Source: a virus (lineage: Duplodnaviria > Caudoviricetes). Taken from it: 64,000 bases of DNA. Positions 80 to 60,000 of this stretch are shown here, one piece after another; the stretch's first letter is position 1; each line of letters opens with the position of its first letter. The stretch covers positions 3,598 through 67,597 of IMG/VR virus record IMGVR_UViG_3300031853_000032. One strand, written 5' to 3'. The notes below the pieces were generated by a model. It was not told where the DNA came from. It worked only from the letters and a program-made list of their open reading frames with translations, and made no database searches. The translations under genes and the position numbers were made by a program.

Positions 80-481
80 ATGAGCGAAAGCATACTTATC
101 TCGGTAAAGCATAAGATCGGCATATCAGACGATGATACAGGATTTGATGATCAGATTATAGACTATATTAACGCTACACTTTCTATAGTTTGGCAGCTTG
201 GCGATATAGGCAAGAAAAATTTCTGTATTACTGGGAGCGATGAGACTTGGGCAGATTATCTTGGTGATGATGAAACTAAGTTTAGTATGGTTAAGTCTTA
301 TGTGGCACTTAAGGTTAAAACAATGTTCGACCCAGGCCAAAGCAACGTACAAAGCGCTAACGAAAAAGTATTAGCTGAGTTTGAGTCAAGACTTAACTAT
401 ATGTCAGATCCGACTGTAACCGAAATCGAAGCATCTAACTATAAGCCATTGTGGGATATTGGGGAGGTAGACTATGAGTGA
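80..481 (+). CDS. putative head-tail connector (gp6-like adaptor)
   Basis: AAGGAGGT RBS favours ATG at 80 over 65; 'SILISVKHKIG..FDDQIIDYIN..L.Q.G' pattern recalled from siphovirus connector proteins; lies upstream of terL. Confidence 0.55.
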   Translation: MSESILISVKHKIGISDDDTGFDDQIIDYINATLSIVWQLGDIGKKNFCITGSDETWADYLGDDETKFSMVKSYVALKVKTMFDPGQSNVQSANEKVLAEFESRLNYMSDPTVTEIEASNYKPLWDIGEVDYE

Positions 482-2855
482 ATACCTTTTTATAAGGCGG
501 CCTCAAATTCAAAATGACGACGAATTGATGCACTTTCAGCATTTAGGGGCTAAACATGGCCAGCATAAGTTTGCTTCTTACGAGTCATCGCCGGGTGTTT
601 GGGTTTATGAATCTTCTCAGGATCACGCCCCATCGACAAGTGGTGAGCTTTCTTCTAGGAAAGCAAATGTCCCAAAAGGAAAATCTGCGTTATCGAAAAA
701 ACTTGCTGAAACTGCTAAGAAAGCTACAGGCCTTGGTACGTCTAATAGGCCATCCGAATATGTTACAAAGAGCCAAATTAAGAAAGCGATTCATGATTAC
801 AACAAAGTAAATGGAACACACTATAAGGCTAAAAATTTTAATACTATAAAGATCGGTAAGTATAAGTATGATATGAAGGGTAACAGGATCAACGAGAAAA
901 TCGGTGCTGACGTTGATCTACAAAACCTTAGTAAGAGAAATTCCAATCGTGTTAAATCTCAGACAAATGAAAAAATAAGACAGGATCTTGCGGATGCTCA
1001 GCACACAGTCAACTCACAGCGAATGAAACCGATTTCTGAGATGACGACAGAAGAGCTTAAAAGTGCTGTTAAAAGAATGGATGCTGAACAAGAATATTTA
1101 GCTAGACTTAACCTTAGAGTTGTTGATACTCCTAAAACCAAGAAAGAGCGTGTCGCTGATTTTCTTAAAGAAAACGGGGCCTTAGCGGCAAATACTTTAA
1201 CCAAAGCAGCTATTGAAGGCGCTGGTGCCGGTCTCAAGGAATATATTAAGTTTAGTACGATGAAGGCCCTTATGAATCAGAACCAGCAGAATCAGAATCA
1301 GCCGAATCAGAATCAGAATAGAAATCAGAACCAGCAAAACCAGCAGAATCGGCAGAACCAGCAGAATCGGCAGAACCAGGATCAGCAAAACCAGAACCAG
1401 AATTGGAATCAGCAAAACCAGCAGAACCAGAATAGGAACCAGAACCAGCAGAATCAGAATTGGAATCAGAACCAGCAGAACCAGCAAAATCAGCAAAATC
1501 AGAATAGGAACCAGAACCAGGATCAGAATACTTCTCAGAATATTGCACCAACTAATGGTAGACCTTTGCCGTTATCTTCCTCAAACCAGGCTAATAACAT
1601 TTCTGCTATTGGTAATTCTGTTACTAGAACTGATAACTCATCTCAGAGTAATCAGAGATCACTGTTTGGCACTACAGGACAAAACGGTGATTTTAGTAGC
1701 ATATCTAATCCTGTTTCTAGAACAAATGATACATCTCAGAGACCTTTATTTAGTACACCCGGACAAAATGGTGATTTTAGTAGCATATCCAATCCTGTAA
1801 GAAGCACAAGTTTTAGATCTATATCTCCATCAAACCAGGATAATAACATTTCTTCTATTGGTAATCCTGTAAGAAACACAAGTCTTAGATCTTTGCCGTT
1901 ATCTTCCTCAAACCAGGCTAATAACATTTCTGCTATTGCTAATCCTGTTTCTAGAACTGATAACTCATCTCAGAGTAACCTGAGACCATTGTTTAGAACA
2001 CCAGGTGCTAATGAGAAAGAAAAAGAGAGCCAGAGGATTTCACCAGTTAATAAACTTCTAAGAAAACAGCTTAACATAAAAATGTCCGAACTTGAGAGAT
2101 CTGCTTCAGAGGTCGATGCATATAATAGCGCGGCTTCAGAATCTATAAGAAGACAGCTTAACGCAAACTACTACGAATCTGTAAGAAGCTCATCAATTTT
2201 TAAATCTTTATTTGGATCTGGTTCAAACCAGGATAATAACATTTCTTCTGCTGCTAATACTGTTTCTAGAACAAATGATACATCTCAGAGATCATTATTT
2301 AGCACACCAGGACAAAATGGAAATGCTAGTAGCATATCTAATCCTGTAAGAAGCACAAGTCTTAGATCTTTGCCGTTATCTTCCTCAACCCAGTCTAATA
2401 ACATTTCTTCTATTGGTAATCTTGTAAGAAACACAAGTATTAGATCTTTGCCTTTATCTTCCTCAAACCAGGATAATAACATTTCTTCTATTGGTAATCC
2501 TGTAAGAAGCACAAGTCTTAGATCTTTGCCGTTATCTTCCTCAACCCAGTCTAATAACATTTCTTCTGTTGGTAATACTGTTTCTAGAACTGGCAATTCA
2601 TCTCAGAGACCTTTATTTAGAACTTCAGGAACAAATCCTGCCAATGCAGCCAATGCAGCATATGCCGCCGCTAAAGAAAAAGAGCGCCAGAGGATTTTAG
2701 CAGATAACGAACGTCTCAGAGAACAGCTTAATAGAAAAATGTCCGAATTTAATAGATCTGCTTCAGAGATCGATGCATATAATGAAGCCGCTTTAGCATC
2801 CATAAGAAGAAAGCTTAACACAAACTACAACGATCTTTACGGCGGAAATAGATGA
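474..2855 (+). CDS. DUF7211-like leader protein with Q/N-rich and S/N-rich repeat regions (possible virion-associated protein)
   Basis: N-terminal 'LMHFQHLGAKHGQHKF..WVY' resembles the leader of 7971..9131 (HSGKLGMKWGQHKF..WVY); long low-complexity C-terminal two-thirds. Confidence 0.6.
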   Translation: MSEYLFIRRPQIQNDDELMHFQHLGAKHGQHKFASYESSPGVWVYESSQDHAPSTSGELSSRKANVPKGKSALSKKLAETAKKATGLGTSNRPSEYVTKSQIKKAIHDYNKVNGTHYKAKNFNTIKIGKYKYDMKGNRINEKIGADVDLQNLSKRNSNRVKSQTNEKIRQDLADAQHTVNSQRMKPISEMTTEELKSAVKRMDAEQEYLARLNLRVVDTPKTKKERVADFLKENGALAANTLTKAAIEGAGAGLKEYIKFSTMKALMNQNQQNQNQPNQNQNRNQNQQNQQNRQNQQNRQNQDQQNQNQNWNQQNQQNQNRNQNQQNQNWNQNQQNQQNQQNQNRNQNQDQNTSQNIAPTNGRPLPLSSSNQANNISAIGNSVTRTDNSSQSNQRSLFGTTGQNGDFSSISNPVSRTNDTSQRPLFSTPGQNGDFSSISNPVRSTSFRSISPSNQDNNISSIGNPVRNTSLRSLPLSSSNQANNISAIANPVSRTDNSSQSNLRPLFRTPGANEKEKESQRISPVNKLLRKQLNIKMSELERSASEVDAYNSAASESIRRQLNANYYESVRSSSIFKSLFGSGSNQDNNISSAANTVSRTNDTSQRSLFSTPGQNGNASSISNPVRSTSLRSLPLSSSTQSNNISSIGNLVRNTSIRSLPLSSSNQDNNISSIGNPVRSTSLRSLPLSSSTQSNNISSVGNTVSRTGNSSQRPLFRTSGTNPANAANAAYAAAKEKERQRILADNERLREQLNRKMSEFNRSASEIDAYNEAALASIRRKLNTNYNDLYGGNR
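1272..1540 (+). repeat. low-complexity Q/N tandem repeat (CAGAAC/CAGAAT units) within CDS
   Basis: encodes NQNQQNQNQPNQNQNRNQNQQ...; almost only Q, N, R, D, W. Confidence 0.95.
1560..2625 (+). repeat. shuffled S/N-rich modular repeats within CDS
   Basis: recurring units LPLSSSNQ.NNISSIGNPVR.TS and SRT.D.SQR.LF.TPGQNG; 2340-2411 and 2496-2567 are an identical 72-bp pair. Confidence 0.9.
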
Positions 2856-2870
2856 TAGGATGGTTTATAT

Positions 2871-4616
2871 ATGTTATCAAACACAGCAGTACCGAAATAT
2901 TACGGACAGTTTAGAGACGCTGTAGTACGAGGTGAAATTCCAGTTTGCAGAGAAATAGATATGGAGATGAATCGTATCGATTCTCTTATTGCTAACCCTG
3001 GTGTATACTATGATGAGGATGCGGTGGAAGGCTGGATAAAATTTTGTGAGAAAGAGCTTACTCTTACTGATGGATCTGACCTTGATTTATTGCCGTCGTT
3101 TAAATTATGGGGCGAACAGATATTCGGTTGGTATTATATAGTTAATCGAAAAGTGTTCGTTCCTGATAAACACGGCGGCGATGGATATTTTATTAAAAAG
3201 AGAATACTTAAGCGTCTTATAAACAAACAATATCTCATTGTTGGAAGAGGTGCTGCCAAGTCGTTATATGATGAGACTCTGCAATCATATTTTCTTATAA
3301 CTGACACGACAACAACCCATCAAATAACCACAGCTCCGACAGTAAGGCAATCTGATGAGGTTTTATCACCACTCAGAACTGCAATAGCTAGAAGTAGAGG
3401 TCCTTTGTTTAAATTTATGACAGAAGGTTCCCTGCAGAATACAACCGGAAGCAAAGCCAATAGAATGAAACTTGCGCCAACAAAAGACGGCATAAAAAAT
3501 TTTATAACAGACTCTTTGCTAGAACCTAGACCGATGTCGATAGACAAATTACAAGGTCTACGATGTAAAGTGGCGACCGTAGACGAGTGGCTGTCTGGTG
3601 ACATACGAGAAGATCCTGTTGGTGCTATTGAGCAGGGTGCTTCTAAAGTTGATGATTATTTGATAATTGCTAGTTCTTCAGAAGGAACTGTAAGAAACGG
3701 TCCTGGCGATGATGTAAAGATCGAACTTCATAAAATACTTAAGGGTGAGTATATAAACCCACATGTTTCTATATTTTGGTATAAGTTAGATAACATTAAA
3801 GAAGTCGGACAACCTAAATACTGGTTAAAAGCAAACCCTAATCTTGGAAGAACCGTGTCATATGAGACCTATCAGCTTGATGTTGAGAGAGCAGAACATT
3901 CTCCAGCCGCAAGAAATGATATTTTGGCCAAAAGATTCGGATTGCCAATGGAAGGTTATACGTACTTCTTCACATTCGAGGAAACAAAACCCACAAAACG
4001 TAAACTTAATTTTCATGGATGCGCTTGTTCTATGGGTGCAGATTTGTCTCAAGGCGATGACTTCTGTTCATTTACGTTTTTATTTCCTGCCGGCAATGGT
4101 GCTTTCGGTGTAAAGACTATAAACTATATAACTGAGACAACTTATAAAGAATTGCCAGAATCAATGCGACAAAAGTATGATCAGTTTATAGCTGAAGGAA
4201 GTCTTGTAATAATGCCAGGTACTATTCTTAACATAATGGACGTGTATGATGATCTTGATGCTCGTATTGTGGCGGCTGAGTATGATGTAAGATCGTTTGG
4301 ATATGATCCATACAATGCTAGAGAATTTGTAGAAAAGTGGGCTAATGAAAACGGACCGTTTGGGATTGAGAAAGTAAGACAGGGAGCTCAAACTGAGACA
4401 GTTCCACTTGGCGAAATTAAGAAACTTACGGAACAAAAATTGCTAGAGTTCGATCAGTCTATCATGCAATTTTGTATGGGAAATGCTATAACACTCGAAG
4501 ATACAAACGGTAATAGAAAGCTTCTAAAAAGAAGGTATGAAGCTAAAATAGATGCGGTCGCTTCACTTATTGATGCTTGGGTTGCGTATAAACTAAATCT
4601 TGAGGCTTTTGAGTAG
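2871..4616 (+). CDS. terL: terminase large subunit
   Basis: Walker A-like GRGAAKS, Walker B 'VATVDEW', RuvC-like nuclease 'GADLSQGDD' and C-terminal 'KIDAVASLIDA'. Confidence 0.95.
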   Translation: MLSNTAVPKYYGQFRDAVVRGEIPVCREIDMEMNRIDSLIANPGVYYDEDAVEGWIKFCEKELTLTDGSDLDLLPSFKLWGEQIFGWYYIVNRKVFVPDKHGGDGYFIKKRILKRLINKQYLIVGRGAAKSLYDETLQSYFLITDTTTTHQITTAPTVRQSDEVLSPLRTAIARSRGPLFKFMTEGSLQNTTGSKANRMKLAPTKDGIKNFITDSLLEPRPMSIDKLQGLRCKVATVDEWLSGDIREDPVGAIEQGASKVDDYLIIASSSEGTVRNGPGDDVKIELHKILKGEYINPHVSIFWYKLDNIKEVGQPKYWLKANPNLGRTVSYETYQLDVERAEHSPAARNDILAKRFGLPMEGYTYFFTFEETKPTKRKLNFHGCACSMGADLSQGDDFCSFTFLFPAGNGAFGVKTINYITETTYKELPESMRQKYDQFIAEGSLVIMPGTILNIMDVYDDLDARIVAAEYDVRSFGYDPYNAREFVEKWANENGPFGIEKVRQGAQTETVPLGEIKKLTEQKLLEFDQSIMQFCMGNAITLEDTNGNRKLLKRRYEAKIDAVASLIDAWVAYKLNLEAFE

Positions 4617-4617
4617 A

Positions 4618-4690
4618 TCATCTTATGAATGGAGTATACTATGAGCGATTATTTAATTCATTCTGGTAAGCTTGGTATGAAATGGTATCA
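4618..4690 (+). repeat. leader repeat copy 1 (RBS plus N-terminal coding motif)
   Basis: 73 bp with 1 mismatch to 6027-6099; the core 4641-4685 is identical to 6050-6094 and 7971-8015. Confidence 0.95.
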
Positions 4691-6008
4691 TCACGATAAA
4701 GATGCCTATCAGACAAAAAGCGGCAACTGGGTTTATGGTAGAAATAAGCCTTCGGAAAATCGTGGTTTAAAAGCAGCAAAGACAGATGGTAAAACAATAA
4801 GCATAGACGGCAAAAAGGGAGCTTCAAATATTCTTGATATCCTAGATGATGCCGTAAAAGCAAATGTAGTAGGTAAGCTCGCCGATTATGACCCAAGTAG
4901 AAGTCAAAACTGTATGAGTTGCGTTATTGCCTACGATCTTAGAAGAACTGGTAATAAAGTTCAAGCAATAGAGACTGTTGAAGGTATGTCAACTTTTGTC
5001 GTTGCTGACATATACAAAAACACCAAATTTACCGATTATGTTATTAGTGCAAAAAGAGCTGGCACTAATAAGTCAATAACTGAGGGTATGACAGATTCGG
5101 AGTTTGATAGCATGGTTAACCATCTTAAGTCCAATGGCGAAAATACAAGAGGCATTGTGACAGTCGATTGGAAATCTAAAAATGGTGAAACCTATAATGG
5201 TGGTCATGCTATGAACTATGAAGTAAAAAATGGAAAGTTTTATTTGATCGACGGTCAGATTGGTAAAGTATATGACGAACAACATGCTAGAAAGCAGCTT
5301 TCTAATGCGTGTAATGTTATAACACTTAGAACTGATAACAGACAAGTAAATCTTGACTACGCTAAAAAATACTTTGTAGAACCAGAAGGCACAAAAGTAT
5401 CAAACACAGGTAAAGATGTGTACAACGCATATATCAGGCGTAAATTCGGTAGCGGTTTGCTTAAAGCAGGCTTAGTTGCAACACCAGTTTCAATTGGCTT
5501 ATCAGCTATACATCCGGCATTTTTCGCCGTTAGCATTGCTGCAGTTGCTACAAGTATTGGTGGATCTATTATTGACGATAAGTCCAAAAAGGCAGCACGA
5601 AAAATAGTTCAAAATAATAGAAACGAAACTGCTAATAAAATTATAGAAAAACTAAAAGGCGTTAAAGTAGATCCTGAACTAGTAAATTATAAGGTGGACA
5701 ATGTTATGAGAAGTCTTCCAGAGTATAACCGTGTTTATAATATGGCCGTCGGTGACAACCAGTTAGATGTTGATTTGATTCTTTCAAACCTTAAAACCAC
5801 TGATAGTAATAACGCAGTCAATAATACCCCTAACCGCAATAGAGCTCCAATACCAGTAGCATTACCGACGGGTAGAAATACAAGAGTTGGTATTACTAGT
5901 AGTCAAAAGGGTTCTATGAAGTCTCTTTATACTAAAGGCGTTCCTATAGATGAAATAGCAGAAAAACTTGGTGTATCACCTAGTACAGTATCTAAGTATG
6001 TAAAATAG
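4641..6008 (+). CDS. papain-fold toxin-like protein 1 (leader + Tox-PL1/glutamine-deamidase-like domain + hydrophobic hairpin + C-terminal HTH)
   Basis: QNCMSC..AYDLRR.G, GGHAMN and LIDGQ motifs; hydrophobic stretch AGLVATPVSIGLSAIHPAFFAVSIAAVA; tail GVPIDEIAEKLGVSPSTVSKY; GGAG RBS favours start 4641. Confidence 0.75.
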   Translation: MSDYLIHSGKLGMKWYHHDKDAYQTKSGNWVYGRNKPSENRGLKAAKTDGKTISIDGKKGASNILDILDDAVKANVVGKLADYDPSRSQNCMSCVIAYDLRRTGNKVQAIETVEGMSTFVVADIYKNTKFTDYVISAKRAGTNKSITEGMTDSEFDSMVNHLKSNGENTRGIVTVDWKSKNGETYNGGHAMNYEVKNGKFYLIDGQIGKVYDEQHARKQLSNACNVITLRTDNRQVNLDYAKKYFVEPEGTKVSNTGKDVYNAYIRRKFGSGLLKAGLVATPVSIGLSAIHPAFFAVSIAAVATSIGGSIIDDKSKKAARKIVQNNRNETANKIIEKLKGVKVDPELVNYKVDNVMRSLPEYNRVYNMAVGDNQLDVDLILSNLKTTDSNNAVNNTPNRNRAPIPVALPTGRNTRVGITSSQKGSMKSLYTKGVPIDEIAEKLGVSPSTVSKYVK

Positions 6009-6026
6009 CAAAGTATATTTGGTAAG

Positions 6027-6099
6027 TCATCTTATGAATGGAGCATACTATGAGCGATTATTTAATTCATTCTGGTAAGCTTGGTATGAAATGGTATCA
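6027..6099 (+). repeat. leader repeat copy 2
   Basis: 73 bp near-identical to 4618-4690. Confidence 0.95.
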
Positions 6100-7927
6100 G
6101 CATGATAAAAATGCTTATCAGACAGAAGCTGGTAACTGGGTTTATGGAAGAAATAAACCTTCGGAACGTGATAATGCTGTTAAACAACAAATTGCACGAA
6201 AAGTTGCAAAAGAAGTAGCACGAGCTAGAAAAACCGGTGAGTACGACATGGAATTCTTAGAAAGAAATTTAGATATAGATCCGCACACCGACAAGCAGTA
6301 TAAAGGAAAAGCGTTGGATAAAGCTTATGCTAAATATTTAACAGCTGAATATTCAAAAAGTATAAGTAACAGTGAGACAAAAAGCGGTAACTGGGTTTAT
6401 GGTGGAAATAAGCCTTCAGAAAGTTGGAACTTAACCACAGAAAAGACCGGCAGTAAAACAAAAAGTGTAAACGGCAAAGCGAGCGCTTTAGATATTCTTG
6501 ATATCGTGGATGATGCCATGAAAACAAATGTAGTAGGTAAGAATGTTGATTATAGCCCAAGCAGAAATCAAAACTGCGTGAGTTGTGCCATCGCCTATGA
6601 TCTTAGAAGAGCTGGTAATAAAGTTCAATCGATAGAGACCGCTGAAGGTATGTCGGCTTTTGTAGTCGCTGACATATACAAAAAAACTAAAACTACAGAT
6701 TATGTTATTAGCGCAAAAAGAACCGGAACTGCTAAGTCATTAACTTCTGGCATGACAGATCAAGAGTTTGATGGTATGGTTAACCATCTTAAGTCCGCTG
6801 GCGAAAACTCAAGAGGTATCATAACAGTCAATTGGAAATCTAAACATGGTGAACGCTATGTTGGTGGCCATGCTATGAACTATGAAGTAAAAAATGGAAA
6901 GTTTTATTTGATTGATAGTCAAAGCGGTGAAGTATTTGACGAACAAGGTTCTAGAAAGCAGCTTTCTTATGCGTATGATGTTATGACACTTAGAACTGAT
7001 AACCGACGTGCAAACCTTGACTACGCTAAAAGTTACTTTGTAGAACCAGAAGGTACAAAAATAACAGATGTAAGTAAAGGTTTGAAAACCGCACATACCA
7101 TTAGTAAAATTGGTACAGGTGTGCGTACAGCCGCTGCTCTTACAACATCACCTTTAATGATCGCATCGTATGTGGCTCCGCAACTTTTCCTTGCCGCATT
7201 GGGATCAGCTGGTGTATCTTACGTTTCATCAGCTGTTACAACTGCAGCTAGAACTTCAGCACTAACAACAATTCAAAAAAGTAGAAACCAATCAGCTGCT
7301 AAAATTATAGAAAGACTAACAGGCGATACAGTAGATCCAAAACAGGTATCTGCTAACGCGATTAGTACTATGAGACGTCTTCCGGAGTATAAACGTGTTT
7401 ATATGACAGACACTGATGACAAACATTTGGATGCTGCTAAAATTATGTCGGAACTTAAAACCACCGATAATAATGGTACCAATACCACTAATAATACCAC
7501 TAACCGCAATAGAGCTCCAATACCAGTAGCATTACCGACTGGAAGAAACGGTAGAAACACTAGAAACGAATCAGTCGATAAAGAACGTGGGAATGCTATT
7601 AACGAACGAGTTAGACGAGCAAGAGAAACTGGTAAGTACGACATGGAATTTCTAGAAAAAGGGTTAGATGTAAATCAGCGTACTGGTAATCTTCTTAAAG
7701 GAAAAGAGTTAGATAAAGCTTATGCTGAATATTTAAGAAGTAAAAGTAACAGTAATAATTCAAAATCCAAGTCAGCAGCATCACAGACTACTAGAAATAC
7801 AAGTATCGGTGTTACTAGTAGTCAAAAAGGTTCTATGAAGTCTCTTTATGCTAAAGGCGTCCCTATAGATGAAATTGCAGAAAAACTCGGAGTATCACCA
7901 AGTACAGTATCTAAGTATGTAAGATAG
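6050..7927 (+). CDS. papain-fold toxin-like protein 2 (paralog of 4641..6008 with two inserted YDMEFLE modules)
   Basis: QNCVSC, GGHAMN and LIDSQ motifs; same hydrophobic hairpin and HTH tail; closely similar to protein 1. Confidence 0.75.
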   Translation: MSDYLIHSGKLGMKWYQHDKNAYQTEAGNWVYGRNKPSERDNAVKQQIARKVAKEVARARKTGEYDMEFLERNLDIDPHTDKQYKGKALDKAYAKYLTAEYSKSISNSETKSGNWVYGGNKPSESWNLTTEKTGSKTKSVNGKASALDILDIVDDAMKTNVVGKNVDYSPSRNQNCVSCAIAYDLRRAGNKVQSIETAEGMSAFVVADIYKKTKTTDYVISAKRTGTAKSLTSGMTDQEFDGMVNHLKSAGENSRGIITVNWKSKHGERYVGGHAMNYEVKNGKFYLIDSQSGEVFDEQGSRKQLSYAYDVMTLRTDNRRANLDYAKSYFVEPEGTKITDVSKGLKTAHTISKIGTGVRTAAALTTSPLMIASYVAPQLFLAALGSAGVSYVSSAVTTAARTSALTTIQKSRNQSAAKIIERLTGDTVDPKQVSANAISTMRRLPEYKRVYMTDTDDKHLDAAKIMSELKTTDNNGTNTTNNTTNRNRAPIPVALPTGRNGRNTRNESVDKERGNAINERVRRARETGKYDMEFLEKGLDVNQRTGNLLKGKELDKAYAEYLRSKSNSNNSKSKSAASQTTRNTSIGVTSSQKGSMKSLYAKGVPIDEIAEKLGVSPSTVSKYVR

Positions 7928-7970
7928 CAAATGAGATTTGGTATGTTATCTTATAAAAAAGGAGTATAAC

Positions 7971-8015
7971 ATGAGCGATTATTTAATTCATTCTGGTAAG
8001 CTTGGTATGAAATGG
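7971..8015 (+). repeat. leader repeat copy 3
   Basis: 45 bp identical to 4641-4685 and 6050-6094. Confidence 0.95.
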
Positions 8016-9131
8016 GGGCAACATAAATTCGCTCTTTATATGACCCCTGGACATAACTGGGTGTATAAATCATCAATAGGTCATCTTTCAAAAGAAGCGC
8101 AGGCTCGTGCTATTAGTAAGTCCGGGTCTAAGGGAATGACATTTATAGGTGATAGGGAAACTCGCAGCATAATTCGAGATCCTTTGACCGGACAATATGA
8201 AGATACTGCAACAGCTCTTGGTAACATATTTAGCGGTAAATCTTCTAAAGAATACGAAGATGATCAATATGATGATTTTTACAAAAGAACATCTAATATG
8301 CTACTGCGCGGTATGGAAGCTGCTGGTATTACATCTGTTGGTCTAAAAGATAGATGGACCGTTACTGACGATATTATGAGGTCATGTAATCCTGGTAACA
8401 AAACAGTTCGGAGAGATGATGGTACTGTTGATACAAGTTCTTCGGAAGTAGGAACTACTAATAATTGTACAAAGTGTACTGCAGCTTTAGAGCTTGGTAT
8501 GAGAGGGTATCCCGTAAAAGCCGGTAGATGTATAGAAGGAGCTAATAGAGGTTCTTTCATGGAATGGTTTAAAGGAGCCGAAACCAAAGTAACTTCATAT
8601 GACGACGGCACCGCTGCCATTCATTCCATGCCTGACAACTCATCTGGTCAGATAGCTTTGTTTATGCAGAATGGCGGTGGTCATGCTATGCACTGGACTA
8701 AAACCAATGGCAAGTTTGAAATCCAGGATGGTCAGAGCGGTGAAAGATATTCATCAACCGACGAGTTTATCGAAAAGCATCCATGGTTTTCCAAAAACAG
8801 AGAAATGGAACTTACAAGACTCGACAACTGTGAACCCGATTGGGATAATATGAACTATAGTTCTGTAGTTGAAGTGCGAAATGACGTTGGTGAAAGAAAT
8901 GGTAGCGATTGGACTGGATATAATGTATCTGGGACACAGTATCATACTTATGATGATTATGGTCATAATAATGTCAGAGATAAATATTTCTCAGATCCGA
9001 TTATTGATGACTATGAGAGCTTTAAGAAAAATGTTCTGTCCAATAGTAAGCGTGGCAAGTCCGTTGAAGATATTCAAAAGAGATATTCCAATGTTTCTCT
9101 CGATGATCTTTGGGATATTATTAAAGGTTAA
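7971..9131 (+). CDS. papain-fold toxin-like protein 3 (same leader, divergent catalytic domain, no HTH)
   Basis: AAGGAG RBS before 7971; NNCTKC.AALE..MRG, GGHAMHW and IQDGQSG motifs. Confidence 0.72.
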   Translation: MSDYLIHSGKLGMKWGQHKFALYMTPGHNWVYKSSIGHLSKEAQARAISKSGSKGMTFIGDRETRSIIRDPLTGQYEDTATALGNIFSGKSSKEYEDDQYDDFYKRTSNMLLRGMEAAGITSVGLKDRWTVTDDIMRSCNPGNKTVRRDDGTVDTSSSEVGTTNNCTKCTAALELGMRGYPVKAGRCIEGANRGSFMEWFKGAETKVTSYDDGTAAIHSMPDNSSGQIALFMQNGGGHAMHWTKTNGKFEIQDGQSGERYSSTDEFIEKHPWFSKNREMELTRLDNCEPDWDNMNYSSVVEVRNDVGERNGSDWTGYNVSGTQYHTYDDYGHNNVRDKYFSDPIIDDYESFKKNVLSNSKRGKSVEDIQKRYSNVSLDDLWDIIKG

Positions 9132-9142
9132 GGAGATAAAAC

Positions 9143-9388
9143 ATGAGTATGAGTTTTACTGATATAGCTAAGAATATAATATCCAAAAATCCTAATTATA
9201 GAGTCATCGCGATAATAGATATCGGAAATTACATCGTGTTTAATTTGGATAAGAAAGATCATACAGGTCCAATTACCGAATCCGATCCCTTAACCTTTTC
9301 CGTAAACAAAAAGACAAAAGCTACTGAGCAATTTAACTGGGGTGTATATTCTGGGAAAACTTATAACGTGCTTTGGGAAGAAGGGTAA
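9143..9388 (+). CDS. putative immunity protein (Imm35-like), copy 1
   Basis: small gene directly after toxin 3 with AAGGAG RBS; helix, then 'IDIGNYIVF..D P..F.V.KKT'; paralogous to 9561..9797. Confidence 0.5.
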   Translation: MSMSFTDIAKNIISKNPNYRVIAIIDIGNYIVFNLDKKDHTGPITESDPLTFSVNKKTKATEQFNWGVYSGKTYNVLWEEG

Positions 9389-9393
9389 TATTT

Positions 9394-9545
9394 ATGAGCA
9401 GATGGATAATCTCCCATTCCGGTATTAAGGGTCAGAAGTGTGGTGTAAGGAGGTATGAGACTTATGCTGGTCACTTAACGCCTTTGGGGACTTTCCAGAA
9501 AAACTCGGAGTATCACCAAGTACAGTATCTAAGTATCTAAAATAA
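9394..9545 (+). pseudogene. collapsed toxin gene relic: leader fused out of frame to HTH tail
   Basis: ATG 9394 encodes MSRWIISHSGIKGQKCGVRRYETYAGHLTPLG; 9496-9536 is identical (41 bp) to 7878-7918 and reads EKLGVSPSTVSKYLK* in another frame. Confidence 0.85.
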
Positions 9546-9560
9546 TAAAGGAGATTTGGT

Positions 9561-9797
9561 ATGTCATATACGGCAAAACAGGCTGCTGATATTTTAAGAA
9601 AAGCTAAGCCTGATGTTAACATCATCAATTGTTGCGATTATGGTAAAGAGTTTCTTTTTACAGCTCCTAAAAATGGTAGCAAAAATGATATAGATCCATT
9701 TTATCTTATTGATAAGAACACTGGGGCTATCACTGGTTATACAATAGCTGAAGATCCTGATAAGTACTATTCGGCAAAGGATGTTAACTTTGACTAA
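9561..9797 (+). CDS. putative immunity protein (Imm35-like), copy 2
   Basis: AAAGGAG RBS; 'AKQAADIL..CDYGKEFLF..DPFYLIDKNTG.I' fits the recalled helix / ..F.. / P..vdk.tG pattern of Imm35. Confidence 0.55.
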   Translation: MSYTAKQAADILRKAKPDVNIINCCDYGKEFLFTAPKNGSKNDIDPFYLIDKNTGAITGYTIAEDPDKYYSAKDVNFD

Positions 9798-9808
9798 GGA
9801 GGACTAAA

Positions 9809-11140
9809 TTGGCGTTACTAGATAGACTTAAAAATTCCTGGAACGCTTTCATAGGCCGTGATCCTACATTAAACAAGCTACCTGATATATACGATCCTTA
9901 TGGTGCCTATGGAGTTCGTCCAGACAGAGTTCGGTTTACTAGAGGTAACGAACGGTCAATCGTTACTGGAATACTTAATCGAATTTCTGTTGATGCTGCA
10001 CAGATTGACTTCAAACATGTAATGCTTGATAAAGACCGACGTTTTCTTTCCGAAAAGAAATCAGGTCTAAACAATTGCCTTACTATGGAAGCTAATATCG
10101 ATCAGACTGGTAGAGCGCTTATACAAGATATTGTGATGAGTATGCTTGATGAAGGGTGCGTGGCTGTGGTCCCTACTGATACTGGATCAAATCCTTTAAA
10201 GAGCGAAAGTTATGATATTTTAACACTTAGATGCGGCAAGATCGTTGAATGGCGACCAACGCAGGTAAAAGTGCATTTGTATAACGAAAGAACCGGCAAG
10301 AAAGAGGATATTATGCTGCCAAAAAGCATGGTAGCCATAATAGAAAATCCGTTCTATGCTATACTGAATGAACCCAATGCTATATATACTAGGCTCAAAA
10401 AGAAGCTATCACTTCTTGATACGACTGATGAAGAACAGGCTTCTGGAAAACTTAACATGATTCTGCAACTCCCATACATAATAAAGACTGAAGCTAGAAG
10501 ACGACAAGCAGAACAAAGAAGAGCTGATCTCGAAGACCAACTTTCTAGTTCTAAGTACGGTATAGCTTATACAGACGGTACTGAAAAAGTAACTCAGCTT
10601 GGGCATCCTATAGACAATACACTTCTGGAGCAGGTTAAAATGTTTCAGGAGCAGCTTTATTCTGTTATGGGTATAACTCAGTCTATTCTCGATTCTACAG
10701 CTGATGAAAAGACTATGCAGAATTATTACTCAAGGACTATCGAGCCAATCCTCAATGCTATTTGTGACGAGATGAACCGAAAGTTCTTGACAAGTACAGC
10801 TCGAACTCAGGGACAAGCTGTTAGATATTTTAGAGATCCATTTAAGCTTGTGCCGATAACAGAGCTTCCAGACCTTGCTGATAAGATGACAAGGAACGAG
10901 ATCATGACATCTAATGAGTGGCGTCAGATTATTGGTCTCAAACCTGCAGATGATCCTTCGGCTAACGAACTTAGAAATAAGAACATCTCGCAGTCTTCTG
11001 AAGAAATAGCGGCAAAGAACGGTGATAGCCTTTTAGGTGAAGAAACGACAGAACAAGGATCGGAAGGAACCGATGAAATACGACTGGAAAGAAGGTTTGA
11101 CAATCCAGAAGTAGAAAAGTTTATTAATGGATTGGGATGA
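9809..11140 (+). CDS. portal protein (HK97-like)
   Basis: TTG start with AAGGAGG RBS; size, position and motifs (LT.EANIDQTG, LADK.TRNEIMTSNE.RQIIG.KP). Confidence 0.9.
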   Translation: MALLDRLKNSWNAFIGRDPTLNKLPDIYDPYGAYGVRPDRVRFTRGNERSIVTGILNRISVDAAQIDFKHVMLDKDRRFLSEKKSGLNNCLTMEANIDQTGRALIQDIVMSMLDEGCVAVVPTDTGSNPLKSESYDILTLRCGKIVEWRPTQVKVHLYNERTGKKEDIMLPKSMVAIIENPFYAILNEPNAIYTRLKKKLSLLDTTDEEQASGKLNMILQLPYIIKTEARRRQAEQRRADLEDQLSSSKYGIAYTDGTEKVTQLGHPIDNTLLEQVKMFQEQLYSVMGITQSILDSTADEKTMQNYYSRTIEPILNAICDEMNRKFLTSTARTQGQAVRYFRDPFKLVPITELPDLADKMTRNEIMTSNEWRQIIGLKPADDPSANELRNKNISQSSEEIAAKNGDSLLGEETTEQGSEGTDEIRLERRFDNPEVEKFINGLG

Positions 11141-11156: not shown

Positions 11157-13142
11157 ATGAGACGTAAATGTTCATTCCAGGGTTGGGCAACTAAGAATGA
11201 TTTAAGATGCACCGATGGCAGAACAATCAGACGTAACGCATTTGCCTCTCAAGATGGCGACAGGGTTCCTCTTGTTTGGAATCATCAGCATGACAGAATC
11301 GATAATGTAATAGGTCATGCAGATCTTGAAAATCGTGAAGAAGGCGTTTGGGCGTATTGCTATCTAAATGATACCCCACAGGCTAAATATGCAGACATTG
11401 CGATAAAACATGGTGATCTTAATACTCTTTCTATTTATGCCAACAAGCTTAAACAGGTTGGTGGAGATGTTCTGCATGGCGTTATAAGAGAGGTAAGCCT
11501 TGTTCTTGCTGGTGCTAACCCTGGTGCAAAAATACTAGATACATCTATCGCACATGGTGATGATGAATACGGTGAAGCGGTTATCGCATTGTCAGATTCT
11601 GATGAAGATTGCCTTATTCATTACGACTTTGATGATGGCGGTGAAGATTGCGATGCATCTGAAGAACCTAAGCCTGAACCTAAGTCTGAACCTGTGCCCG
11701 AAACTAAAACGGAACCAGTAATTCAGCATGCGGAGGAAAACATGGAAGAAAAAAATAATGCACCTGAAAATGGTGGCGAACAGAAAGAAAAGACAATCGG
11801 CGACGTACTTAATACCATGAATGATGAACAGCTACAGGTGGTTGAAGCTCTGGTTGCTCAGGCTCTTAAAGAAGGGCAGGATGCAAAGAAAGAAGAGCCT
11901 AAAAAAGAAGAATCTGCTGAAGACGAAGATGATGAGGAGGAGTATATGAAACACAATGTTTTTGACAGCGATTATGAGAACAATAACCCCTTCGTTCTTA
12001 CAAATGACGATCAGGCAGCTATTATCGCTGATGCTGAGAACTATGGTGGATCACTTAAGAGATCTTGGATAGCACATGCAAATGCTATGGGAATTGATGC
12101 AAACGCACTTCAGCATGATGCAGATTCTGATGCTGGTATTACAAGATCACTTCATGTTGGTGATACTGGCGCGCAGACATATGGTGTAACTGAGCCTTCT
12201 TTCCTGTTCCCGGAAGCACATGCTCTTAACACAACTCCTTATATGATCCAGAGACGCCAGGAGTGGGTTGCTAAGGTATTTAACGCAGCTAAGCACGTTC
12301 CTTATGGCAGAATTAAGAGCCTGTTTGCTGATATCACAATGGACGAAGCAAGGGCTAAGGGCTATGTAAAGGGAACTGAGAAGCAGGAAGAAGTATTTGA
12401 GCTCTTGAAGAGAATCACCCTGCCTACAACCGTTTACAAGAAACAGAAGATCGACCGTGATGATACAATTGATATTACAGATTTCGATATGGTTGCATTC
12501 ATTAAGGGTGAGATGAGAGTAATGCTGGATGAAGAACTCTCTCGTGCCGTTCTGCTTGGTGATGGAAGAGCTGCTTCTTCTAACGATAAGATTAAGGAAG
12601 ATTGCATCCGTCCTATCTGGAAAGATGCTGATCTGTTCGTAATCAATAAGACTTTCGTAGCATCCGCTGATACTGATGAAGAGAAAGCTGCTAAAGCTGA
12701 TTGCAAGGCATTTAGACGTGCTGCTATCAAAGCTCGTAAGGATTATAAGGGAACTGGAAATCCTGTTCTGTTCACAACCGCTGATAGAGTATCTGACTTC
12801 CTGCTCATGGAGAATGAGATCGGAGAAGCTAAGTATAAGACACTTGCCGAGCTTGCATCAGCACTTAGAGTTCGTGACATCGTTGAAGTTCCTGTTATGG
12901 AAGGTCAGACAAGAGTTGTTAACGGTCAGACAAGAAATCTCGAAGGTATTATTGTCAACATGGCTGACTACACAATCGGCGCTGACAAGGGTGGAGCTGT
13001 TTCGATGTTTGACGACTTCGACATCAACTTCAACCAGATGATTTACCTGATTGAGACAAGATGCTGCGGAGCTCTTACAATTCCGAAGTCTGCTATCGTT
13101 ATTGAGTCTACTAATAACGCTGACGGTTCTATCTCCGGCTGA
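11157..13142 (+). CDS. prohead protease-scaffold-major capsid protein fusion (HK97 fold)
   Basis: N-terminal 'VPLVWNH.H' and 'SIYA..EVSLV..GANPGA' protease motifs; acidic linker; C-terminal capsid 'FDDFDINFNQMIYLIETRCCGAL'. Confidence 0.9.
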   Translation: MRRKCSFQGWATKNDLRCTDGRTIRRNAFASQDGDRVPLVWNHQHDRIDNVIGHADLENREEGVWAYCYLNDTPQAKYADIAIKHGDLNTLSIYANKLKQVGGDVLHGVIREVSLVLAGANPGAKILDTSIAHGDDEYGEAVIALSDSDEDCLIHYDFDDGGEDCDASEEPKPEPKSEPVPETKTEPVIQHAEENMEEKNNAPENGGEQKEKTIGDVLNTMNDEQLQVVEALVAQALKEGQDAKKEEPKKEESAEDEDDEEEYMKHNVFDSDYENNNPFVLTNDDQAAIIADAENYGGSLKRSWIAHANAMGIDANALQHDADSDAGITRSLHVGDTGAQTYGVTEPSFLFPEAHALNTTPYMIQRRQEWVAKVFNAAKHVPYGRIKSLFADITMDEARAKGYVKGTEKQEEVFELLKRITLPTTVYKKQKIDRDDTIDITDFDMVAFIKGEMRVMLDEELSRAVLLGDGRAASSNDKIKEDCIRPIWKDADLFVINKTFVASADTDEEKAAKADCKAFRRAAIKARKDYKGTGNPVLFTTADRVSDFLLMENEIGEAKYKTLAELASALRVRDIVEVPVMEGQTRVVNGQTRNLEGIIVNMADYTIGADKGGAVSMFDDFDINFNQMIYLIETRCCGALTIPKSAIVIESTNNADGSISG

Positions 13143-57049: not shown

Positions 57050-60000
57050 GTGGGGTTGGATTTCTTAGAAATAGTCGATACCCTGGGAAAGAACAACACT
57101 AGAGAAGTATGGCCACAGTTCAACGTATGTAAAAGTAAAGATTTGATGATAAAAGGATCTGACTTTTACGCAATTTATGATGAATCAACTGGACTGTGGT
57201 CTACTGATCAGTTTGAAGCTGTCAGGCTTATCGACAACGAGATTCAAAAAAGGGTTACTGAATTAAAAGCAAAATATCCTGAATCAATTGTCGTTGGAAA
57301 ATTTCTTAGAAACACCAAGAACAAGACAATTAACGGATGGAGGCAGTACTGTAAACAACAGACGTTTGATAATTACAAAGACTTAGATGCCAAAGTGCTG
57401 TTCTTTAATGACAAGCCAAAAAAGAGTGACTATGCTACACACGTTCTTCCTTATTCTATAGAAGAAGGCGACATGAGTTCTTACGACAGACTTATGTCAG
57501 TTTTATATTCTGACGAGGAAAGGGAAAAGATAGAATGGGCTATAGGTTCTATCATCTCTGGAGATTCTAAGAAGAACCAAAAGTTTATAGTTCTTTATGG
57601 TGCTGGTGGTACTGGTAAAGGTACTGTCATAGACCATATAATAGAACCGATGTTTGATGGATACTACTGTACATTTAGTGCTAAGAACCTTACGTCAGCA
57701 TCAAATTCGTTTGCTATGGAAGACTTTAGATTGAATCCTCTTATAGCAATTGACGCAGATGGTGATATGAACAGACTTGACGATAACACAAGGCTTAACG
57801 GTATTGTATCTCACGAGTATATGACAGTTAATGAAAAGTTCAAGTCATCATATACATCAAGATTCAACGCACTGTGTATCATAGGTACTAATAGACCAGT
57901 TCGTATTACAGACTCTAAATCAGGTCTTATAAGAAGGCTTATTGATATTTCACCAACAGGAAATAAGGTTGGTATTGATGAATACAATAAGCTTATAGAA
58001 GGCATGCAATATGAATTTGGTGCTATAGCCTATAAGAGCCTTAATTTCTATAAAAAGAATAAACACAAATATGATGCGTACATTCCGACAAAGATGATGG
58101 GTGCAAGTAACGATCTTTATAATTTCCTTATGGACAATGCAGAAGTGGTTGATGTCGAAGAAGGAATTGACCTAGCATCTTTATGGGTAATGTACAAAGA
58201 TTATTGTGCTGACTCTCTCATACAGTATCCACTTAAAAGAAATATTCTTAAAGAAGAACTTAAAGACTATTTCAGGTTCTATTACGAGAAATTTAAACTC
58301 GAAGATGGTCGTATAATCTATAGCGTGTACAAGTCACTCAGACGAAATAAGATAGGTCTTTATGATCCTAACGACGGAATGATTGTCGATGAGGAAAATG
58401 ACAACAATTGGCTTTCATTTGAATTTCAACATTCTCTACTCGATGAATTCTTAGCTGATCAAAAAGCTCAATACGCTCCAGAAGTCACAAACAAAAAGAT
58501 GTATAGATGGGTTAATTGTAAAACCACTTTGAAAGCTTTAGATACAACAAAACTCCACTACACTCTTGGTCCTAAAAATCTTGTAACAATAGACTTTGAC
58601 AAAAAGGATCAAAATGGTGATAAGAGTTTTGAAGAAAACGTTAAAGCTATCGAAAGGCTTGGGCTCCCACCGACATATGCTGAATTGTCAAAAAGTGAAA
58701 ATGGTATACATCTTGAATACCTCTGGAACGGAGACATAAATGATCTTTCACCGACAATAGAAGAAGACGTTGAAATTAAGACTTTTAAAGGTGACTCATC
58801 TCTTAGAAGAATGCTTACAAAATGCAACAATGTCCCAATAAGAACCATTACAAGCGGATTACCAATTATGAAAAGGAGCAATGAAAGGGTGATTAACCAA
58901 GACGCTGTAGAAAACGAGAAGCATCTAAGGAATAGAATCGAAAAAGCACTTCGCAGGGAAATTGGTGTTGATATTTCGAATCCTGATTCAGGCAAGGCTC
59001 ATACAGCACCGATGATCCAGTACATTAAAAGCGAACTCGATAAAGCTTATGCAAGTGGTATTCCTTATGATGTATCCGACATAAGAAACCGTATATGTGC
59101 ATTTGCTATGACTTCGAACCATCAGAAGGAAGACTGCTATAAGAAATGCTTAGAAATGCACTTTAGATCCGAAAATAACCCTGTCGATGCTGACCATATA
59201 ATACACAATGACTCTGTCGATAGAACCGGATCAGACCTTGTTATATTTGATTGTGAAGTATTCAAAAACCTGTTTGTAATTGTATGGAAAAAGCTTGGAA
59301 AAGAGAACACGCCACAAATAATGATGAACCCGTCTCCAAGAGAAGTTCAATCGCTGTTTAACTATAAGCTAGTCGGGTTTAATAACAGGAAATATGATAA
59401 TCACATTTTATATTTCAGGGCGTATCTCAACTACACCAATATGCAGCTTTATGAGAAGTCTAAGGAGATAATAAAGGATCATACAGGCTATCACACGAAC
59501 GCATACAGCATATCCTACACTGATATTTATGATTTCATGTCAAATCCGAACAAACAGGTTGGATCTTTGAAGAAGTGGGAGTACAAGCTTGCTAAAGAAG
59601 GCTATCACGTAATGCACAAGGAGAACGCTTATGACTGGGATGAGCCAGTACCAGAAGATAAGTGGTCCGAAATAGCTGATTATTGCGTAAATGATGTTCT
59701 TGCAACTGAAGCAGTCTTCAACTATTCTGACGTGCATGATGATTACGAAGTTAGATGTATGCTAGCCGAACTAGCAGAAATGACTCCTAACGACACTACA
59801 AATAGTCTTTCTGAGAAAATTATATTCGGATTTGACAAGCATCCACAGTCTCAGTTTAACTATAGGTTCCTTGGTGAAAATCCTCTTAATTATCCGAATC
59901 TTAAAGCTAAGATGGTTACACCATTTACTTATGTAGAAGCTGAGAAAATCACAAAGGATATTATTGCAAAAGGTCTTTCTCTTGAGGACTCAGTTGAAGA

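Follow-up and report, generated by a model that had tools for sequence, protein, structure and literature searches.

A DUF7211-type leader on toxin-like and basic proteins in the head operon of a gut Clostridia siphovirus, a candidate capsid-loading tag

Between the genes for the terminase large subunit (TerL) and the portal protein of a gut phage, three toxin-like genes begin with one and the same short leader, which appears to be a diverged form of the protein family DUF7211 and which recurs in the head operons of related phages. The DNA analysed (the window) comprises 64,000 nucleotides (nt), bases 3598-67597 of the 67.6-kb IMG/VR virus record IMGVR_UViG_3300031853_000032, which CheckV rates as complete, and every gene of the genome lies on one strand (+ in all coordinates given here). 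TerL (2871..4616; PF20441, E 6.7e-32; phrog_9, E 1.4e-104) forms the left border and the portal (9809..11140; PF04860, E 1.5e-22) the right border of this interval, which we refer to as slot B, the interval between the connector and TerL being slot A. The region is most likely a variable cargo slot in the head-assembly operon of an Oengusvirus-like siphovirus from gut Clostridia, and its DNA gave no match when compared with 50,697 phage records.

The first toxin-like gene (gene 1; 4641..6008, 455 amino acids, aa) consists of the leader (4641-4685), a papain-like Tox-PL1 domain (~4818-5390), a weakly hydrophobic segment (~5466-5576), a helical region and a helix-turn-helix (HTH; 5889-6005). Gene 2 (6050..7927, 625 aa), with its papain domain at ~6569-6928 and its HTH at ~7832-7924, is a paralogue of gene 1 (60% identical, BLASTP E 1e-158) into which two extra copies of a helical 'TGEYDMEFLE' module (internal repeat D11) are inserted. 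Gene 3 (7971..9131, 386 aa), which is acidic, carries a diverged Tox-PL1 domain (~8460-8741) and neither hydrophobic segment nor HTH, and has only the leader and the papain domain in common with gene 1 (28% identity within the domain). A preliminary description of this DNA had credited the first two genes with a C-terminal HTH and a hydrophobic hairpin. The HTH stands: Pfam matches to HTH_23 and HTH_7 are sub- or near-threshold, and in gene 1 the HTH is modelled with a predicted local distance difference test (pLDDT) score above 90 and its fold matches transposase/resolvase HTHs at Z ~5 (VIA-align). The supposed hairpin is only moderately hydrophobic, one 19-residue stretch passing the threshold in gene 1 and none in gene 2, in a region of low pLDDT.

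The 45-bp leader was said to be identical at the DNA level in all three genes, and it is, with 45 of 45 positions agreeing in each of the three pairs, every synonymous site included. The 45 nt on either side of it are 20/45 (~44%) identical between genes 1 and 3, which is the chance level. As the leader is identical even at synonymous sites and its flanks are at chance, the pattern indicates that gene conversion or recombination has recently affected the leader, beyond selection on the peptide alone. The start of each unit carries the core motif L-x-H-x-G-x-x-G-x-K-W, which reads YLIHSGKLGMKW in the three genes and IISHSGIKGQKC in the relic described below. The canonical form in relatives is ..(D/N)YL(E/A)HHGIKGQKWGVRR(Y/F)QNxDG(S/T)LTxAG(K/R)KRY, alongside sister variants which each open with L-x-H (...WGVxNGPPYPL; HYGxPxxSGRYxWGSG; HxKYIxxxxxGxWxYxY), and the window version, HSGKLGMKWY..Y.T.SGNWVY, is one of these sisters. 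Against Pfam PF23847 (DUF7211), the gene 3 leader scored 15.4 bits (E 0.012), below the gathering score of 27, genes 1 and 2 were not listed, and the best matches in the genome reached 19.6 and 18 bits; a hidden Markov model (HMM) that we built from 38 leaders, those of the window among them, gave the window leaders 40-59 bits. On these sequence comparisons, the leaders of the three genes are a diverged variant of DUF7211. In the library searched, we found no paper naming 'DUF7211' or the motif 'KWGVRR'.

All three genes possess the papain-like motif set ascribed to them in the preliminary description, QNCMSC/NGGHAMN/LIDGQ in gene 1, QNCVSC/VGGHAMN/LIDSQ in gene 2 and NNCTKC/GGGHAMH/IQDGQ in gene 3, and all three match Pfam PF15644 (Gln_amidase/Tox-PL1), with E-values of 9.9e-11, 1.6e-10 and 8.1e-5 (43.2, 42.5 and 24.1 bits), respectively. 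The signature residues are N90-C91, H189 and D204-x-Q206 in gene 1 and N165-C166, H238 and D253-x-Q255 in gene 3, the His-to-Asp spacing being 15 residues in genes 1 to 3, and NC-H-DxQ is the signature by which Tox-PL1 was defined (PMC3482391). A whole-library search with the papain domain returned 943 related clusters. In alignments of 150 and 101 of these N90, C91, H189, D204 and Q206 (gene 1 numbering) were invariant or nearly so, and in alignment A5 H238 and Q255 were invariant and C166 and D253 nearly invariant (gene 3 numbering). The AlphaFold (AF2) model of gene 1 exceeds pLDDT 90 across residues 90-250. Foldseek with the whole 455-residue model gave weak rows only (best E 4.7e-3), after which VIA-align was adopted for fold comparison; the best neighbours of the gene 1 model were SpvD (Z 10.5, root-mean-square deviation 3.4, 149 residues aligned) and OspI (Z 8.3), further matches were C39 peptidase domains (Z ~8), AvrPphB (Z 7.6) and staphopain (Z 7.5), and weak ones were the pseudomurein endoisopeptidase PeiR (Z 7.5) and a CHAP endolysin (Z 5.1). 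A profile of the 150 homologues searched against all PDB sequences returned nothing relevant and no sequence-level match to any solved chain. A papain fold with an aligned triad had been set beforehand as a check on the toxin assignment, and it was found, in a confident model, in the OspI/SpvD neighbours and in the triad kept among homologues. As all three copies retain the triad, we predict that they are active enzymes with a Cys-His-Asp papain fold. Among 101 homologues of the domain, 99 match Gln_amidase and 50 match DUF7211, and none contains a MuF, secretion-system, receptor-binding or translocation domain.

Directly after gene 3 lies a gene for a small alpha+beta protein of 81 aa (9143..9388), a candidate inhibitor or 'immunity' protein, and a second such gene, encoding 78 aa (9561..9797), belongs to the same family by alignments A3 and A6. 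Small genes recur in this position: Tox-PL1 genes on three unrelated contigs are each followed immediately 3' by a gene of 78-86 aa, in locus L068 the gene after a polyprotein ending in Tox-PL1 begins with the same small domain (hhalign probability 82%, E 1e-5), and the two window proteins align with the small genes of L073, L074, L075 and L068. Altogether a small alpha+beta gene follows Tox-PL1 in six loci, and the polymorphic-toxin architecture proposed in the preliminary description (conserved N-terminus, variable body, small downstream gene) does recur on unrelated contigs. A word-based search for further relatives returned just the five query members. The AF2 model of the 81-aa protein (pLDDT 76) has one helix packed on a four- to five-stranded beta-sheet, and a fold search with it found nothing significant (best Z 5.5), cystatin/PepSY/YpeB-like rows at Z 4-5 being a lead only. 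When the 81-aa protein was modelled in complex with the gene 3 domain, using our own alignments, the ipSAE was 0.57 (runs of 0.65, 0.57 and 0.32) against 0.00 for the best of three controls, a score graded as weak support by the tool. In the tool's calibration, 58 of 80 solved complexes reached the mark, as did 2 of 110 mismatched pairs. The runs had 51% or more of their contacts in common, and partner pLDDT was at least 75. Given the six-fold conserved adjacency and the predicted complex, it is likely but unproven that the small proteins act as inhibitors of the Tox-PL1 enzymes.

The relic (9373..9540), between the two small genes, is a canonical DUF7211 leader (W replaced by C) joined out of frame to an HTH-coding tail. 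The preliminary description had placed a leader here, at 9394, and it is indeed the best canonical DUF7211 match of the window (59 bits with the leader HMM). The relic tail (9493-9567) is 91% identical to 7875-7949, and both belong with 5956..6030 to a junction repeat (family D10, 87-100% identity) that spans the end of the HTH coding sequence, the stop, the ribosome-binding site and the first codons of the 78-aa gene. Variability of the C-terminal bodies between relatives had also been set as a check beforehand, and the cargo varies even in L149, a relative ~90% identical over the whole region. There, the first gene (251 aa) is a leader, a 'GEYD' module and an HTH with no papain domain, the second (550 aa) has a papain domain and no 'GEYD' modules, whilst gene 3, the relic and the two small genes have been kept. 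The second toxin gene of L149 opens with 'MSYTAK', the start of the 78-aa gene, in frame with its leader (L149:8469-8500 against window 9561-9580), which looks like a recombination scar from the repeated junction. D10 is likely a recombination bookend, and the identical 5' leader and the repeated 3' HTH-tail junction are the obvious candidates for crossover points.

Leader genes proved to be numerous and confined in position. The leader profile (38 leaders) matched 7843 of the 8000 candidates scored, and across 64 viral loci fetched via their portal, leader genes were found solely in slot A, in slot B or just after the portal. Loci fetched by the leader motif alone gave the same picture, as 51 of 52 (of at least 9 kb) had homologues of this connector/TerL/portal/protease-capsid set, with one to nine tagged genes per phage in the same slots; these loci came mostly from Lachnospiraceae, Ruminococcus, Oscillospiraceae and Faecalibacterium assemblies, isolate chromosomes included. 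The tag is therefore confined to one head-module type and phage lineage (FP_oengus, Lactococcus P162-like), in which it carries changeable, mostly basic cargo. Clustering by sequence divided the 232 distinct bodies into 81 clusters, of which two are large and most have a single member; the pI (isoelectric point) is above 9 in 202 of the 232, and 75 have a hydrophobic 19-mer. Pfam domains on the bodies include GNAT acetyltransferases, Tox-PL1, Ntox50, DUF4258, HTHs and one AAA_33, most bodies having no family. The term 'effector array', used in the preliminary description, thus suits the Tox-PL1 genes, but not most of the tagged cargo, which consists of small basic proteins with no toxin domain. 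The C39-like fold matches had prompted the idea that the papain domain itself is the peptidase which processes leaders, this was rejected as none of the 81 cluster representatives of the lineage's tagged proteins carries the domain. Slot A is filled in most of those relatives that possess canonical leader genes; the large L028-L052 group, a sub-clade with no canonical DUF7211, gave no HMM match there. In the one member of this group examined, L043 (sample 3300045988), the same slots hold very K/A-rich proteins (6129-6719, 8477-9034 and 9036-9989) which open with the variant leaders LEHYGLPRRSGRYKWGSG and LKHSWKNHKYIRIENGRYIY.

The strongest matches to the leader profile were polyproteins of 500-1870 aa with three to seven spaced leaders, encoded in the same two slots (translation table 11). 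For example, P0001 (1745 aa, table 11) occupies slot B and has seven leaders, with a GNAT domain in its first unit and Tox-PL1 in its last, whilst P0031 (791 aa, four leaders) occupies slot A and was seen on 24 contigs. The leader claimed in the preliminary description is N-terminal in the window genes, it is not solely so, recurring as a junction module inside these polyproteins. Because relatives encode the same units fused, the three separate genes of the window are, on this comparison of gene layouts, the split form of their bead-on-chain units. In L008-L010 (L008:4591-6219), the portal ORF (open reading frame) continues stop-free into a '...DDSHLEHHGIKGQKWG...' leader and a His-rich body of ~120 aa, and is, to judge from its unbroken frame, a natural portal-cargo fusion. 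Portal C-termini face the capsid interior, so the fused leader unit would lie inside the head.

The prohead protease (S78), an acidic spacer and the major capsid protein are encoded in the window as a single fused ORF (11157..13142; PF04586, E 3.9e-5), and the spacer must go during maturation. An alignment of 51 homologues revealed five His columns, all between the protease and capsid domains, 69-100% conserved and each with L/I/M at -2, in an acidic spacer that is otherwise poorly conserved. The five motifs are [LMI]-A-H-G-[DE], [IL]-x-H-[SA]-[DE], [IM]-x-H-N-[LV], L-S-H-S-[ED] and L-A-H-G-I, and the window spacer has [LIM]-x-His at residues 133, 191, 266 and 307; these are candidate maturation cleavage sites of the S78 protease. 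Every leader likewise starts with [L/I/M]-x-His, and in 283 internal leaders the His at position 0 is 100% and the Leu at -2 98% conserved. Of 116 non-redundant polyprotein junctions, 54 have a second motif, x-H-[ST]-[DS]-[IL], at a distance of 5-25 residues ahead of the leader His, against 1.3% of control windows. A cut after the His of this second motif would leave 'SD..YL.HHG...', and this is how the window genes begin (M-SDYLIHSG), so that 'MSDYLIH' has the look of a polyprotein unit already trimmed at its N-terminus; its shape is also that of the capsid-targeting sequence (CTS) of phage T4, which ends in hydrophobic-x-Glu. We infer that the S78 protease recognises [LIM]-x-His and cuts behind the His wherever the site occurs in its own spacer, between polyprotein units or where a leader begins, a parallel to T4 gp21, which cleaves hydrophobic-x-Glu sites. 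As S78 prohead proteases work inside the prohead, cleavage of the tagged proteins by this enzyme would imply that they are encapsidated.

In the window, slot A holds a cargo gene (474..2855) for a 793-aa, Q/N-rich protein of pI 10.2 with Q/N and S/N repeats, for which no Pfam family was matched. The preliminary description saw the leader here as well; residues 15-51 are 51% identical to the gene 3 leader (pairwise E 2e-10), so that a diverged leader is present, although the leader HMM misses this copy. The gene contains internal 78-nt repeats, nested at 1275-2833 with 9-nt Q/N codon repeats and a ~160-nt duplication, and its product is 735 aa long in the close relative L149, which suggests that the tract expands and contracts; other relatives have DUF7211 genes or polyproteins in slot A. 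From the genome start, the order is a small-terminase-like gene, a leader-bearing 305-aa gene, an HNH endonuclease, an SH3_3 protein, a CW_7 protein and the connector (65-481), followed by the 793-aa protein, TerL, the three toxin-like genes, the 81-aa gene, the relic, the 78-aa gene, the portal and the protease-capsid fusion. The five genes before the connector (L003:1033-3665) start with the small-terminase-like gene, of 117 aa, and the 305-aa gene (L003:1406-2323, a short way upstream of the window) is a sixth leader gene, with a weak DUF6582 match. Wall-binding modules such as SH3_3 and CW_7 are unusual within a packaging region. A leader was also looked for on the 1414-aa ORF at 57050-61294, which has none and is instead a replication protein, with matches to DUF5906 (primase/helicase-type) and a PolB-like exonuclease. 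The same head module is present in Faecalibacterium phage FP_oengus and the Lactococcus P162 group, and a preprint places FP_oengus-type and P162-type phages with the cluster BI actinophages (bioRxiv 10.1101/842583).

With modest confidence, we favour the reading that these genes encode head-loaded, protease-trimmed cargo which is delivered with the DNA, independently of MuF and much like the T4 internal proteins; the analysis shows the anatomy of the genes, the papain fold, the distribution of the tag, the fused forms and the motif common to leaders and spacer, whereas loading, cleavage, delivery, toxicity, target and inhibition are the parts that we infer. That the leader loads proteins into the capsid is suggested by its confinement to two slots, the portal fusion, the [LIM]-x-His site in common with the spacer and the basic cargo. 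Each unit would be built of an [L/I/M]-x-His site, a Gly/Trp/Arg-rich mini-module of ~30 residues and an exchangeable body. The leader would dock the unit within the assembling prohead, where the prohead protease would trim it at the His site, and at sites of the same type the protease would also cut the spacer from its own protease-capsid fusion and polyproteins into single units. The mostly basic cargo would then exit the head with the DNA and act in the next host cell, where the Tox-PL1 enzymes may modify or cleave a cytoplasmic host protein, whilst the downstream small alpha+beta proteins would restrain these enzymes in a cell that produces the phage or is lysogenic for it. The bookends by which cassettes are reshuffled would be the leader DNA, identical between genes, and the repeated junction at the HTH tail. 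A wider proposal, which we advance tentatively as a serious possibility, is that DUF7211 is a two-part portable capsid-loading signal (a Leu-x-His protease site plus a docking module) of a major gut-Clostridia phage lineage, loading any body behind it, be it a single gene, a polyprotein bead or a portal extension, and so providing a MuF-independent, recombination-shuffled route for injecting toxins with paired inhibitors, acetyltransferases and basic DNA-binding proteins.

Several observations weigh against delivery from the head. The [LIM]-x-His link is a common motif rather than a mapped cleavage site, and the residue after the His is small in the capsid spacer but His, Tyr or Ser in the leaders. 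The leader is predicted at pLDDT 45-52 in the gene 1 model and, given this low confidence, would have no defined fold, which makes it either a flexible peptide or one that requires a partner, and it is kept even where the unit is already fused to the portal, which suggests processing or another role rather than simple tethering. Gene 3 scores exactly on the Pfam gathering score of PF15644 (24.1 bits), and the hydrophobic segments of genes 1 and 2 are weak. The small proteins gave no match to Pfam, Imm35 included, at E up to 10 (five members), and there is no pairwise BLASTP alignment between the 81-aa and 78-aa proteins, whose kinship therefore rests on the family alignment. In the literature, we found no virion proteomics, N-terminal sequencing or packaging test on DUF7211 proteins, and in the cultured relatives FP_oengus gp69 and Lactococcus P162 gp07 and gp08 are annotated as 'hypothetical protein' only. 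A record naming a tagged protein as part of the virion was looked for in FP_oengus and four lactococcal phages, all of which list these proteins as hypothetical, and proteome data looked for in PMC5883640 and bioRxiv 10.1101/842583 were not found.

The tagged proteins could be mainly internal structural or DNA-condensing components, the leader anchoring basic proteins to scaffold or portal for packing or ejection (a scaffold, core or pilot role) and enzymes being occasional passengers. The pI above 9 of 202 of the 232 bodies, most of them with no enzyme domain, would agree with this, as would the filling of slot A in most relatives that possess canonical leader genes, the long, low-complexity, basic slot-A protein of the window, and the C-terminal HTH, which would suit DNA binding; yet one to nine genes per phage, in 81 clusters and varying even between close relatives, would be unusual for essential structural parts, and toxin domains with paired small genes recur, so we regard a mainly structural role as unlikely. 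We find it distinctly improbable that the leader does no more than mark junctions or processing sites for the head protease or another peptidase, with products that act late in the producing cell and are neither packaged nor delivered. The leader does stand at every polyprotein junction, with the H-[ST]-[DS] motif upstream, and is retained in portal fusions, where tethering is redundant. The stand-alone window genes, however, have no junction to cut and still retain the full module of 30-40 residues, the substrates of an S78 protease acting inside the prohead would be inside as well, and the strict confinement to the head operon would be left without explanation.

Two further alternatives concern the toxins themselves. 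Papain-like folds include cell-wall amidases, and the papain domains might be virion-borne wall hydrolases of the NlpC/P60 or CHAP type that open peptidoglycan at DNA entry, a role that could draw on the weak fold matches to PeiR (Z 7.5) and a CHAP endolysin (Z 5.1) and on the SH3_3 and CW_7 wall-binding domains encoded by nearby genes that precede the window. Both by sequence and by fold, however, the domains are closest to effectors of the Tox-PL1/OspI/SpvD type rather than to CHAP or NlpC/P60, a dedicated small partner gene in six loci fits an inhibitor of an intracellular toxin, and most phages of the lineage have no papain domain, which leaves a wall hydrolase very unlikely. The explanation to which we give the least credence is that tagged toxins are freed at lysis as bacteriocin-like weapons, with the small genes immunising lysogens and the tag serving export or uptake. 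The layout here, a toxin-like gene with a small gene beside it, matches that of polymorphic toxin systems (PMC3482391), and Oengus-type phages are temperate prophages of Faecalibacterium (PMC5883640), but the 101 homologues contain no receptor-binding, translocation or secretion-system domain, the tag is restricted to a single type of head module, and a unit fused to the C-terminus of the portal lies within the capsid.

Oengus was reported in up to 40% of viromes (PMC5883640), and phages of this type rank among the most prevalent in Faecalibacterium and its relatives among the gut Clostridia. Should the tag prove to serve loading, tagged proteins that are so far uncharacterised would become candidate injected effectors by the thousand, for host takeover, anti-defence or as inter-strain weapons, and siphovirus heads could be loaded with foreign proteins by means of a simple handle, a use already made of the T4 CTS. 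The polyprotein and portal-fusion forms, together with the common His sites, amount to a concrete prediction of the specificity of the S78 prohead protease, so far poorly defined. These predictions are open to cultured phages, namely FP_oengus and Lactococcus P162, P118, P092 and P078. What is new here are the polyproteins with three to seven internal leaders and the portal-fused units, the [L/I/M]-x-His site common to leaders and spacer, the reshuffled array in a ~90% identical relative and the small gene in six loci.

The preliminary description had proposed that the leader is a delivery tag independent of MuF. Independence from MuF holds, with no match to MuF (PF04233) at E up to 1 across the 67.6-kb genome. 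For a targeting tag common to polymorphic proteins delivered from the head, the T4 CTS is already a precedent. The T4 internal proteins are a diverse set with only the CTS in common (PMC3012670), and the likeness to IPI-III and Alt lies in a short conserved N-terminal sequence on diverse, mostly basic proteins at a locus that is polymorphic between relatives (PMC3012670). T4 internal proteins are loaded into the prohead, trimmed by the protease at a hydrophobic-x-X site and injected with the DNA, steps that are predicted for the proteins described here. There is no sequence relationship to the CTS, the candidate site ends in His and that of T4 in Glu, and the tag here continues into a conserved stretch of ~30 residues, which has no obvious sign of being removed and recurs inside polyproteins. 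In contrast to T4, the phages here are siphoviruses of Clostridia with an S78 protease-capsid fusion.

MuF polymorphic toxins, including MuF-Tox-PL1 fusions, have been described in temperate Firmicutes phages (Zhang et al. 2012, PMC3482391; Jamet et al. 2017, PMC5576092). They resemble the tagged genes in belonging to the DNA-packaging module of temperate gut Firmicutes phages, in combining a constant N-terminus with variable C-terminal toxins (Tox-PL1, Ntox50) and in their proposed delivery from the head. The constant part is here a peptide of ~30-40 residues rather than a portal-associated MuF domain of ~110 residues, and there are several tagged genes per phage instead of one. Polyvalent proteins (Iyer, Burroughs, Anand, de Souza and Aravind 2017, PMC5512222) are long multi-domain proteins, encoded beside virion genes, that contain GNAT domains and peptidases and are predicted to be packaged and processed, a description that DUF7211 polyproteins such as P0001 (GNAT ... 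Tox-PL1, seven leaders) fit. PMC5512222 has 0 occurrences of 'Tox-PL1' or 'papain-like'; in the present system, one repeated junction module separates the domains and the same units also exist as separate genes.

The enzymes resemble PF15644 Tox-PL1, OspI (3W30) and SpvD (5LQ7) in their NC-H-DxQ signature and papain-like fold, the subfamily found here differing from Tox-PL1 at large in being coupled to DUF7211-type leaders. Of the polymorphic toxin architecture, a constant and a variable part are present, as is variation between strains; the adjacent small gene recurs and binding is weakly predicted. Imm35 is a Tox-PL1-specific immunity family and a proposed peptidase inhibitor (PMC3482391), which the small proteins resemble in being alpha+beta proteins encoded beside a Tox-PL1 toxin; its named conserved W and [ST] are not conserved in them, and alignment A6 has no conserved Trp. 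The nearest precedent is thus the T4 internal proteins in function, the MuF toxins in ecology and cargo, and the polyvalent proteins in architecture. What sets the present system apart from these three is the tag, the bead-on-a-string forms and the candidate His site.

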